This document shows, one piece after another, positions 19,362-59,003 of a stretch of 64,000 nucleotides of DNA; position 1 is the first letter of the stretch, and each line of letters opens with the position of its first letter. The stretch lies in assembly GCF_003334765.1 (NCBI RefSeq), contig NZ_QOWT01000020.1, one strand, 5' to 3'. The notes under the pieces are model-generated. The model did no database searches, was not told where the DNA came from, and saw only the letters and a list, made by a program, of their open reading frames with translations. The position numbers and the translations under genes were made by a program. This DNA is from Escherichia coli (GTDB taxonomy: Bacteria; Pseudomonadota; Gammaproteobacteria; Enterobacterales; Enterobacteriaceae).

Positions 19362-19438
19362 GGCTACGTAGCTCAGTTGGTTAGAGCACATCACTCATAA
19401 TGATGGGGTCACAGGTTCGAATCCCGTCGTAGCCACCA
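19362..19438 (+). tRNA. metT: tRNA-Met (elongator, anticodon CAU)
   Basis: GGCTACGTAGCTCAGTTGGTTAGAGC...CTCATAA...GGTTCGAATCC...GTAGCCACCA. Confidence 0.95.
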
Positions 19439-19447
19439 TCTTTTTTT

Positions 19448-19532
19448 GCGGGAGTGGCGAAATTGGTAGACGCACCAGATTTAGGTTCTGGCGCCGCAAG
19501 GTGTGCGAGTTCAAGTCTCGCCTCCCGCACCA
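19448..19532 (+). tRNA. leuW: tRNA-Leu (anticodon UAG), long variable arm
   Basis: GCGGGAGTGGCGAAATTGGTAGACGC...TTTAGGT...CCTCCCGCACCA. Confidence 0.95.
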
Positions 19533-19555
19533 TTCACCAGAAAGCGTTGTACGGA

Positions 19556-19630
19556 TGGGGTATCGCCAAGCGGTAAGGCACCGGTTTTTGATACCGGCAT
19601 TCCCTGGTTCGAATCCAGGTACCCCAGCCA
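19556..19630 (+). tRNA. glnU: tRNA-Gln (anticodon UUG)
   Basis: TGGGGTATCGCCAAGCGGTAAGGCACCGGTTTTTGATACCGG...ACCCCAGCCA. Confidence 0.95.
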
Positions 19631-19645
19631 TCGAAGAAACAATCT

Positions 19646-19722
19646 GGCTACGTAGCTCAGTTGGTTAGAGCACATCACTCATAATGATGGGGTCACAGGT
19701 TCGAATCCCGTCGTAGCCACCA
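19646..19722 (+). tRNA. metU: tRNA-Met (elongator, anticodon CAU), second copy
   Basis: Identical to the tRNA at 19362..19438. Confidence 0.95.
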
Positions 19723-19769
19723 AATTCTGAATGTGTCGAATATGTTCGGCAAATTCAAAACCAATTTGT

Positions 19770-19844
19770 TGGGGTATCGCCAAGCGGTAAGGCACCGGAT
19801 TCTGATTCCGGCATTCCGAGGTTCGAATCCTCGTACCCCAGCCA
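19770..19844 (+). tRNA. glnV: tRNA-Gln (anticodon CUG)
   Basis: TGGGGTATCGCCAAGCGGTAAGGCACCGGATTCTGATTCCGG...ACCCCAGCCA. Confidence 0.95.
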
Positions 19845-54858: not shown

Positions 54859-55824
54859 ATGAGTAAACCCATTGTGATGGAACGCGGTGTTAAATACCGC
54901 GATGCCGATAAGATGGCCCTTATCCCGGTTAAAAACGTGGCAACAGAGCGCGAAGCCCTGCTGCGCAAGCCGGAATGGATGAAAATCAAGCTTCCAGCGG
55001 ACTCTACACGTATCCAGGGCATCAAAGCCGCAATGCGCAAAAATGGCCTGCATTCTGTCTGCGAGGAAGCCTCCTGCCCTAACCTGGCGGAATGCTTCAA
55101 CCACGGCACAGCAACGTTTATGATCCTCGGCGCTATTTGTACCCGCCGTTGTCCGTTCTGTGATGTTGCCCACGGTCGCCCGGTAGCTCCTGATGCCAAT
55201 GAACCAGTGAAACTGGCTCAGACCATTGCCGATATGGCGCTGCGTTATGTGGTTATCACCTCCGTTGACCGTGATGACCTGCGCGATGGCGGTGCCCAGC
55301 ACTTTGCGGATTGCATTACTGCCATTCGGGAAAAAAGCCCGCAAATCAAAATTGAAACTCTGGTGCCGGATTTCCGCGGTCGTATGGATCGTGCTCTGGA
55401 TATTCTGACTGCAACGCCACCAGATGTGTTCAACCATAACCTGGAAAACGTACCGCGTATTTACCGTCAGGTACGGCCTGGTGCAGATTACAACTGGTCG
55501 CTGAAGCTGCTGGAACGCTTTAAAGAAGCGCATCCGGAAATCCCGACCAAGTCTGGTCTGATGGTGGGACTGGGTGAAACCAATGAAGAAATTATTGAGG
55601 TAATGCGCGACCTGCGCCGTCATGGTGTGACGATGTTAACGCTGGGGCAATATTTGCAGCCAAGCCGCCATCACCTGCCGGTTCAACGTTACGTTAGCCC
55701 GGATGAGTTCGACGAAATGAAAGCCGAAGCGCTGGCGATGGGCTTTACCCATGCTGCATGCGGTCCGTTTGTCCGCTCTTCTTACCACGCCGATTTGCAG
55801 GCGAAAGGGATGGAAGTTAAGTAA
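54859..55824 (+). CDS. lipA: lipoyl synthase (radical SAM)
   Basis: 321-aa ORF with CPNLAEC and CTRRCPFC cysteine clusters. Confidence 0.97.
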
Positions 55825-55854
55825 TCCTGTAATAATTACTTACATCTGTCTGAT

Positions 55855-55885
55855 AAAAAACCCGCTTTTTGAAGCGGGTTTTTTG
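55855..55885. terminator. bidirectional intrinsic terminator between lipA and tatE
   Basis: AAAAAACCCGCTTTTTGAAGCGGGTTTTTTG. Confidence 0.8.
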
Positions 55886-55924
55886 TATCGAACAAGATAT
55901 TGAGGGAGCGTCCTGCTCGCCACG

Positions 55925-56128
55925 TCACTCTTTATGAGAGAGCTTTTCAGCCTGAAGATCAACGTCTGCGCCTTTTTTCGCCGCAGCATCGTCATCATTC
56001 ATCGCCTTCTTGAACCCTTTAATGGCCGCTCCAAGGTCTCCGCCCAGCGTACGTAACTTCTTAGTCCCAAACAGCAGAACGACCAGCGCCGCAACTACCA
56101 GCAGTTTGGTAATACTAATCTCACCCAT
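55925..56128 (-). CDS. tatE: twin-arginine translocase subunit TatE
   Basis: 67-aa [46 protein letters not shown]. Confidence 0.95.
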
Positions 56129-56256
56129 AGATACCTTCTTGACATATAACCGGCAACAGAACGCGCCTTAAAAACCAGAGAATATTAACGGTCATTCGAC
56201 GCGCGCACACAATAGCAATCTGTAACAAGGTGAATCAAGCGCCGAGTAAAAAAACA

Positions 56257-57050
56257 TCATAATAATTGCGGCGGCGCAAAGCGACGGTTGTTTAAGACGG
56301 GCAGTTGCGCGCGCACCTGACGCACACGTTCGGGCGTCACTTCCGCCATAATGAGTGCAGGCATTTCTGACGCTGCCGCAATGGTGACGCCAAAGGGATC
56401 TATAATCCGGCTTTGACCGATATTTTTGTTCCCGCACTCCCCCGCCGCCACCATATAACAGGTGGTATCCAGCGCACGAGCGGCAAGCAACGTTGACCAG
56501 TGATGCTCTTTGAGCGGCCCGCGAACCCAGGCGGCAGGAAGTACCAGGATTTCAGCTCCCTGTAATGCCTGTGCCAGCGCCAGCTCTGGAAAGCGTAAGT
56601 CATAACAGGTCATCAGACCGACCTTCATCCCTTCCACCTCCAGTAACGGAGCGATTTCATTACCAGCATCAACACGGCGTGATTCCTGAATGGCAAATGC
56701 ATCATAGAGATGCAGTTTGGCATAACGGGCGACGATGTTTCCTGCCTGAAGTGCCACCAGCATATTCCATGCGCGCCCCGGCGTTGAAGGAACATGAATC
56801 GTCAGAATTGTCGTCATCATGTTACGTTTACTTTCTCGCCGTAAAGTCCGAGGAATTCGCCTTCCAGCAGCTGTGCTGATTTAACCGATAGATCTGCATC
56901 ATGATCATCGCGCGCCAGCAATGCTTCCGGCAGGACAAACAGCGATACGTCGTTTTCCGCCGCCTGCGCCATCAACGAGGCACAAATCTCAGCGTTCTTT
57001 TCCCACACAGATGTAACAGCAAACTGTCCTGCGGCAACCAGCATTGCCAC
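56257..57050 (-). pseudogene. ybeM: C-N hydrolase (nitrilase-superfamily) gene ybeM, split by a frameshift
   Basis: Two minus-strand ORFs in different frames overlap by 4 nt (56817..57050, 77 aa; 56257..56820, 187 aa); Lys and Cys candidates (…YAKLHLYD…, …[12 protein letters not shown]…) lie in the downstream piece. Confidence 0.75.
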
Positions 57051-57136
57051 CTCCTGTCAGAGTCGTAAAATTCGCCAACGACGATTATTCGGCGTTACAC
57101 TTATCACTCATACAAATCAAATAGCAGGATTTTGCA

Positions 57137-57520
57137 GTGTTACAACTTCTTTTAGCAGTTTTTATTGGCGGTGGTACGGGAAGCGTGGCGAGATGGCTGT
57201 TAAGTATGCGATTTAACCCACTGCATCAGGCGATTCCGTTGGGGACGCTGACAGCAAACCTGATTGGGGCATTCATCATAGGAATAGGATTCGCATGGTT
57301 CAGCAGGATGACGAACATTGATCCAGTGTGGAAAGTATTAATCACCACCGGATTTTGTGGCGGTCTAACAACCTTCTCAACATTTTCGGCAGAAGTGGTG
57401 TTTTTGTTACAAGAGGGCCGCTTTGGCTGGGCATTACTGAACGTTTTCGTCAACCTTCTGGGGTCTTTTGCCATGACCGCACTGGCATTCTGGCTGTTTT
57501 TGGCCTCAACCGCACACTAA
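57137..57520 (+). CDS. crcB: fluoride exporter CrcB (Fluc)
   Basis: 127-aa ORF with GTG start, four TM segments, [12 protein letters not shown] motif. Confidence 0.93.
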
Positions 57521-57525
57521 AGACC

Positions 57526-57555
57526 AAAAAAAACCCGCTGATTAAGCGGGTTTTG
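57526..57555. terminator. bidirectional intrinsic terminator between crcB and cspE
   Basis: AAAAAAAACCCGCTGATTAAGCGGGTTTTG. Confidence 0.8.
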
Positions 57556-57573
57556 AATTCTTGCTGACGTATC

Positions 57574-57783
57574 TTACAGAGCGATTACGTTTGCAGCAGA
57601 AGGGCCTTTGGCACCGTTAGTGATTTCGAACTCTACGCGCTGACCTTCAGCAAGAGTTTTAAAACCATTAGTCTGGATTGCAGAGAAGTGTACGAACACG
57701 TCTTTGCTGCCGTCTTCCGGAGTAATGAAACCGAATCCTTTGGACTCATTAAACCACTTAACGTTACCTTTAATCTTAGACAT
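57574..57783 (-). CDS. cspE: cold-shock-domain protein CspE
   Basis: ORF 57574..57813; internal start [20 protein letters not shown] gives 69 aa. Confidence 0.95.
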
Positions 57784-57957
57784 CAAAATTACCTTTACAT
57801 GAAAAATAGACACAAATGCTGTGTCGGTTACCAGTACACCAATTGTGGTACGCTTTGTCCAGTGTAACTTTACTAAAAAGTGATAAAAGTCGCGTTATTT
57901 TTGATGTTACTTATTTTAGCTATTGATTTTAAAGAAGTTACTAAAACTTCATTTGTC

Positions 57958-58518
57958 TCAAAACTGAAAGCGCATCCAGGCAAAGTACACATTGCCATTG
58001 TTGTAGGTACCCGGAATGTAGGTCATCTGAAAAGTCACTGGGCCATAACCCACGGAGGCCAATGGCAGTAGAACCGGGAGAGGGATGTAATTCCAGTTAT
58101 CGCGTGCCGTTACGCCAGCGGTGAATCCCAGACCTAAATGAAAATTTTCATCCGCCAGCGGTCGCCAGGTACTTTCCCATCCGTATCCGGCAATCGGTTC
58201 CCATTTGTTCCACGAGTCCTTAAATGCCATGGCATACAGGCCATGCCAGTTTCCTTTTTCATCCCAACGCGACAGGCCAAAACCGCCACCCCACGGTCGC
58301 TCGTTATAGCGATCGGTTTTTTCTTTGTCGTAAGCGAAACGTGCATGCCAGGTGATGGCAGGAATATATAAATCATAATGTTCAGGCTGTTGCCAGGTTT
58401 GTGCAATATTTTCTCTAAACGTTGTCATCCACTCATCTGCGTTAGCAAAAACTTTACCAACGCTGATTAACTGAATAAAAACAAAGGAAAAGATAGCGAC
58501 ATATTTACTCACGTTCAT
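57958..58518 (-). CDS. pagP: lipid A palmitoyltransferase PagP (CrcA)
   Basis: ORF 57958..58542; internal start [25 protein letters not shown] (signal peptide) gives 186 aa. Confidence 0.93.
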
Positions 58519-59003
58519 TTGTGACCATAAAACATTTATCAAAAATCTACTACTAGCATAGCAAAGCTACAATTAACATAACCTTAATAGACCCAACATA
58601 AAGAATAATCTGAATAGCTGCTCTATTTATTTCCGCTTGTTCAAGTTAAATATTTCCGCGCATCGATTAAAGATGATGCGTCGTTTTCTGCGATGGGAAT
58701 AGTCAAAAAAGAAAAACCAAGTCTTTTTTGATGACAAAATGCAATCAAGGAAAAATTATTTTATTTTTTAACGAGATACAACAATCATCTTAACGAAGTA
58801 TATAATATATATCGTCAACCTATGCTCATATTAGATTATTTTTTGAGCGCACAGCCGCAGCTAACACCATTGCAATTAACAAATTTGCATCAATCCACCA
58901 TCAATTTGCACACATTATTATGTGATAATTGCCAACCGCTAAATATGCGTTTTGTTATCTATGTATAAAAACAGCAACTTCAATGTCTTAATGGCAGTTT
59001 TTA

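Follow-up and report, generated by a model that had tools for sequence, protein, structure and literature searches.

The split ybeM gene in a wild relative of Escherichia coli K-12 is almost certainly a young, lineage-specific pseudogene

What does the pair of overlapping reading frames at the ybeM locus of an Escherichia coli contig represent: a dead gene, an error in the sequence, or a divided gene that still yields a useful product? The locus lies in a window of 64,000 nt (the whole stretch of DNA that was analysed, from contig NZ_QOWT01000020.1), where two minus-strand ORFs are found at 56817..57050 (77 aa, counted from a GTG) and 56257..56820 (187 aa, beginning MMTT). They are in different reading frames and have the four bases ATGA at 56820..56817 in common; the ORF list and the sequence match in this respect exactly what the initial annotation had described. 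That annotation also took the two ORFs for ybeM, a gene of the C-N hydrolase (nitrilase) superfamily encoding some 260 aa, and profile searches agree: residues 5-247 of the conceptual join match positions 2-255 of the 256 in the Pfam CN_hydrolase model (PF00795, E = 9e-38), and on the NCBIfam profile NF033621 (260 positions) the upstream ORF covers positions 2-65 (85.3 bits) and the downstream ORF positions 76-260 (344.6 bits). Since adjacent ORFs cover consecutive parts of one profile, this is a split gene and not a chance juxtaposition. The intact allele is 789 nt long (262 codons plus stop), so the actual protein has 262 aa. As argued below, the locus is almost certainly a recently inactivated ybeM, that is, a young and lineage-specific pseudogene, and one that is already known.

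The lesion itself is a deletion of a single G between 56846 (C) and 56845 (T) on the minus strand, which turns the intact GGA CGT TTA into GGA C-T TTA at codon 67; it is the sole gap, at column 206, in the alignment of the window gene with D72, BLR(DE3), and a K-12 record. The intact allele of D72 equals the window gene at all 788 other positions (the first difference is at gene index 199), and no second lesion was seen in the window allele relative to D72. The frame is disrupted with respect to the orthologues of D72, BLR(DE3), Nissle, and O157, which share the same crcB-tatE context. The initial annotation was thus right about the type of lesion, a frameshift, confirmed here as a 1-bp deletion by alignment to intact alleles, but not about its place: it had looked for the break around the ORF overlap, and the deletion is 25 nt upstream of it, followed by nine wrong codons (LYGEKVNVT) and the stop codon TGA at 56819..56817. 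The pseudogene as a whole occupies 56257..57044 (minus strand, 788 nt), the same span as MG1655 b4581 and as the records labeled “frameshifted” by PGAP, and the one given by the alignment to intact alleles. Its N-terminal fragment ORF (56817..57044) holds 66 native residues, including Glu40, ahead of the nine out-of-frame ones; its C-terminal ORF (56257..56820) matches the intact protein from residue 76 to residue 262, contains Lys110, Cys147, and Glu154, and begins at the native Met76-Met77, where the original frame offers its first start codon downstream of a stop. The window gene is a single base short of a working gene, and a single-base insertion could revert this young pseudogene.

The frequency of the deletion was determined by an allele-specific megablast with 27 nt from each side of the site (a 54-mer carrying the deletion and a 55-mer with the G), in which a 28-nt word must span the site. 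Of 5426 complete E. coli genomes, 5425 contain the ybeM region, the one other genome giving no match; 860 of the 5426 (∼16%) have the deletion allele and 4565 (∼84%) have the intact site, which together account for all 5425 genomes with the locus. These counts bear on the possibility, raised in the initial annotation, that the gene is truly intact and that the missing base is a sequencing or assembly error. Single-base indels are the commonest type of assembly error; yet 860 independent complete genomes, among them the MG1655 reference, have exactly this deletion, it sits on one shared local haplotype, and its context (ACGT to ACT) is not a homopolymer, all of which makes an error vanishingly improbable.

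Curated and automatic annotations treat the two alleles accordingly. In MG1655, ybeM (b4581) is annotated as a pseudogene, and PGAP calls the gene “deaminated glutathione amidase, frameshifted” in 300709, BW25113, EcN_Sk, NCTC86, MS 196-1, and HSP425; the 789-nt ybeM is an ordinary CDS in D72, BLR(DE3), Nissle 1917, and O157:H7. The first of the two outcomes offered by the initial annotation, a pseudogene, therefore has the support of the MG1655 record and of the PGAP label for the same allele in other strains. We also classed a sample of 60 carrier records, spaced evenly down the match ranking, according to what the strains are called and where they were isolated. On this reading, some one third of them are K-12 or derived laboratory strains; the others have human, poultry, pig, river water, seawater, wastewater, or soil sources. 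The broken allele extends beyond laboratory K-12 and is in circulation among wild isolates from humans, animals, and the environment. Other variants and lesions of ybeM exist among E. coli genomes: some have a ybeM region that exceeds the intact length by 3 nt (915 vs. 912 nt with the same query); in JNE21-003 the ybeM query matches in two places, the best of which covers only 84% of the query (possibly an insertion); and one or two ybeM-matching places fall on plasmid records.

What has been lost can be judged from the intact protein. The 262-aa protein of D72 scores 452 bits against NF033621 (“deaminated glutathione amidase”), above the curated cutoff of 355, whereas the window's own products, with the scores given above, are both under that cutoff; by this measure, the window contains a broken copy of an NF033621 member gene and not a member protein. 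Among solved structures, the intact protein is closest to the Nit domain of C. elegans NitFhit (1EMS, E = 3e-29), yeast Nit2 (4H5U), and mouse Nit2 (2W1V). In the alignment with 1EMS, the counterparts of Glu40, Lys110, and Cys147 are Glu54, Lys127, and Cys169, which we take to be the catalytic triad of the NitFhit structure. Homology with eukaryotic Nit1, yeast Nit2, and the NitFhit Nit domain (branch 10 of the nitrilase superfamily) extends over residues 5-255, with the catalytic triad aligned; compared with NitFhit and the eukaryotic Nit proteins, however, the bacterial protein is distant in sequence, shorter, and without the Fhit fusion, and its gene is inactivated in the window. The deletion leaves the triad split, with Glu40 (56927..56925) in the upstream piece and Lys110 (56718..56716) and Cys147 (56607..56605) in the downstream piece; the initial annotation had correctly assigned the candidate Lys and Cys to the downstream piece, and the third residue, Glu40, has to be added to its account on the other side of the break. 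Intact YbeM (WP_000959109.1; D72, BLR(DE3), and O157:H7) matches the same family profile with the same Glu, Lys, and Cys, whereas in the window the frame is broken and no 262-aa protein is encoded.

The reaction assigned to intact YbeM is the hydrolysis of deaminated glutathione, with 2-oxoglutarate and Cys-Gly as products. This assignment goes back to Peracchi et al. (2017, PNAS 114:E3233), who are reported to have described the reaction as a form of metabolite repair, its substrate being a useless side-product of transaminases. E. coli reportedly has an enzyme of this kind. The naming “NIT1, YbeM (deaminated glutathione amidase)” is used in papers that cite Peracchi et al. (2017).

We then come to what ribosomes would make of the broken gene. 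The true start is the ATG at 57044; all records examined annotate it as such, and it is preceded, at a distance of 5 nt, by a strong Shine-Dalgarno sequence (AGGAGG, 57055..57050, minus strand, recognized by pattern match and by anti-SD energy); the GTG at 57050 falls within this Shine-Dalgarno. At -11.6 kcal/mol, the anti-SD duplex of ATG 57044 is far stronger than the 5th-percentile value (-6.2) for the window ATGs taken together, and the best duplex of the internal ATG 56820 reaches -3.1 kcal/mol at a spacing of 13 nt, where the median of the window ATGs is -2.3. The internal Met-Met start at 56820 accordingly has no usable Shine-Dalgarno, its duplex being at the background level of the window ATGs, and independent initiation there was ruled out on these energies. 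The second outcome of the initial annotation, a useful truncated product from this Met-Met, is unsupported for the same reason, and such a product would in any case lack Glu40 and the first 75 residues. As for other signals, a promoter scan gave no sigma-70-like site for ybeM on the minus strand of the 86-nt crcB-ybeM spacer, with counts that did not exceed those in shuffles, which says little about a promoter either way, and an Rfam scan of 55000..58600 gave no structured RNA in ybeM or in this spacer; the scan returned only a cspA-type thermoregulator over cspE and weak, sub-threshold matches in the lipA/tatE terminator region. The former (RF01766, over cspE and its leader, 57526-57968, minus strand, 124 bits vs. 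a gathering score of 78) is expected for an mRNA of the cspA family.

The following course of events would account for the locus. Intact ybeM, as found in most E. coli, encodes a 262-aa Nit1-type amidase of the nitrilase superfamily whose assigned role is metabolite repair of deaminated glutathione, and one G was lost from codon 67 in the lineage that includes the window and K-12. Ribosomes starting from ATG 57044 would then add nine wrong residues to 66 correct ones and stop at the premature TGA, releasing a 75-aa peptide with the catalytic Glu only. The remaining 187 codons, with the Lys and the Cys, are stranded in the -1 frame without a ribosome-binding site of their own and would be at most weakly translated, by termination-reinitiation at the ATGA; the 187-aa product, which would have neither Glu40 nor the start of the fold (residues 1-75), should be inactive. 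Because the triad is split and no internal Shine-Dalgarno is present, we infer a loss of enzyme activity.

Could the ribosome or the polymerase repair the frame instead? The downstream ORF is read in the -1 frame of the upstream ORF, and a -1 slip anywhere in the 30 nt between 56846 and 56817 would give a near-native protein, so that programmed -1 frameshifting or transcriptional slippage might in principle restore the full-length enzyme. Direct reading of this stretch (CTT TAC GGC GAG AAA GTA AAC GTA ACA TGA), however, reveals no slippery heptamer of the form X XXY YYZ and no run longer than three, of A, of T, or of any other base. In addition, the gene is a plain continuous ORF in 84% of genomes, which is what a recent lesion predicts and a conserved recoding signal does not, and both curators and PGAP class the split form of ybeM as a pseudogene. 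Restoration of the frame is thus extremely improbable; programmed ribosomal frameshifting of the dnaX, prfB, or IS-transposase type in particular was rejected, given the missing heptamer and the absence of the frameshift from most homologues.

The inactivation of ybeM can also be followed in the DNA around the gene. Over a 4-kb haplotype, carriers of the deletion differ from the window at 0-7 positions (EcN_Sk at 33), compared with 69-109 positions for O157 and Nissle. This near-identity among carriers fits one ancestral deletion, and we infer a single evolutionary origin, an event passed down within a lineage. Where the gene is intact, its differences from the D72 allele are nearly all synonymous (6 of 6 in BLR, 9 of 9 in O157, and 14 of 18 in Nissle), which indicates purifying selection on ybeM. 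By comparison, ybeM has two additional T-to-C changes, V33A and V37A, both non-synonymous, in the K-12 records (MG1655 and BW25113) and in EcN_Sk. Their codons are at 56925-56950 in window coordinates, adjoining the catalytic Glu40 on its upstream side, and the changes are absent from the window and from the wild carriers. V33A and V37A look like post-inactivation drift in the K-12 line, a first decay under relaxed constraint. Purifying selection when the gene is intact, together with early decay when it is broken, is the signature expected of a real gene turned young pseudogene; and the window ybeM is, on this comparison, the ancestral form of the broken allele.

A further explanation would leave the two pieces some role of their own. 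A stop and a start codon overlapping as ATGA are a classic arrangement for translational coupling, and ribosomes reinitiating at Met76 could make a downstream product with its own function, or one that forms a split enzyme with the 75-aa peptide. The very strong upstream Shine-Dalgarno means that ribosomes reach the overlap, and the window allele has acquired no second inactivating mutation. Against this, the internal start is without a Shine-Dalgarno and the fragment without Glu40 and residues 1-75; native residues 67-75 are missing from both pieces; V33A and V37A of K-12 fall beside Glu40 in the N-terminal piece, as relaxed constraint predicts; and deletion of the locus in MG1655 gave no visible phenotype (bioRxiv 10.1101/359208). 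A functional role for reinitiation is therefore very unlikely, even if some synthesis of the 187-aa C-terminal fragment may take place through ATGA coupling. More broadly, the broken allele might be something other than neutral debris, either because selection favored losing the amidase in the commensal lineage where the allele occurs (∼16% of complete genomes, with roughly two thirds of the sampled carriers apparently non-laboratory isolates), or because the ATGA-coupled pieces still give a split enzyme of low activity or a small protein of a new kind; this broader proposal we regard as distinctly unlikely too.

The window locus can be compared directly with that of K-12. MG1655 b4581 has the same crcB-ybeM-tatE-lipA locus, with the 1-bp deletion, the 788-nt span, and two ORFs; the window differs from MG1655 in lacking V33A and V37A, in lacking IS5D, and in having 5 tRNA genes where MG1655 has 7. 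Over 36.8 kb, the window and the reverse complement of MG1655 at about 651-715 kb share 99.96% identity. That the window is MG1655 itself was ruled out by this identity, the absence of IS5D, and the shorter tRNA cluster; it comes from a close wild relative of K-12. The 1195-bp IS5D of MG1655 is missing from the gltI-lnt spacer (window 27224-27228). The tRNA cluster of the window (19362-19844) has five genes (Met, Leu-tag, Gln-ttg, Met, and Gln-ctg), and that of MG1655 has seven (metT leuW glnU glnW metU glnV glnX), so that the window is short of one Gln-ttg and one Gln-ctg and the cluster is ∼220 bp shorter. The swine isolate ECCTRSRTH03 contains 25 kb of the window, including this tRNA arrangement, as a single 100%-identical piece; the other records with 100% identity, among the matches listed, align in 4-5 pieces over a span longer by ∼220 bp. 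EcN_Sk (NZ_CP172017.1; 5.06 Mb, from human stool) has the K-12-type ybeM haplotype, V33A and V37A included, and turns divergent inside the opening ∼200 nt of the locus, upstream of pagP, where 202 nt contain 29 differences; the switch suggests that K-12 DNA was joined here to another background, by recombination or transduction.

The status of ybeM in MG1655 has been put to practical use: as a pseudogene, it routinely serves as a neutral place for marker insertion and has been replaced by cassettes that act as a neutral linked marker (bioRxiv 10.1101/359208; PMC7242477), and growth rate and cell dimensions after the replacement were “indistinguishable from wild type” (bioRxiv 10.1101/359208). 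To the known pseudogene, the present analysis adds the exact lesion, its frequency (860/5426), and the finding that a wild relative of K-12 has the broken allele in its ancestral, otherwise unblemished state. Strains with the broken allele presumably do without one step of glutathione metabolite repair, which may be relevant where K-12 is used as a model for the metabolism of glutathione or of transaminase side-products.

Two reports concern other properties of the ybeM sequence. When over-expressed from pBAD24, a 29-bp ybeM fragment encoding MFLQRRGAH, as well as other out-of-frame fragments, caused filamentation, and the full-length gene did not (PMC6206680); in the window, an out-of-frame ORF of 56 aa within ybeM (56625-56795, minus strand) starts with MFLQRRGAH, the same peptide as that of the filamentation fragment. 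In CFT073, an NsrR ChIP peak was found 345 bp inside ybeM, which is among the NsrR targets found earlier in K-12, and in a CFT073 mutant ybeM was down-regulated by NO (0.30-fold; PMC5320621); the position of this peak, ∼345 nt into the gene, corresponds to about 56700 in the window.
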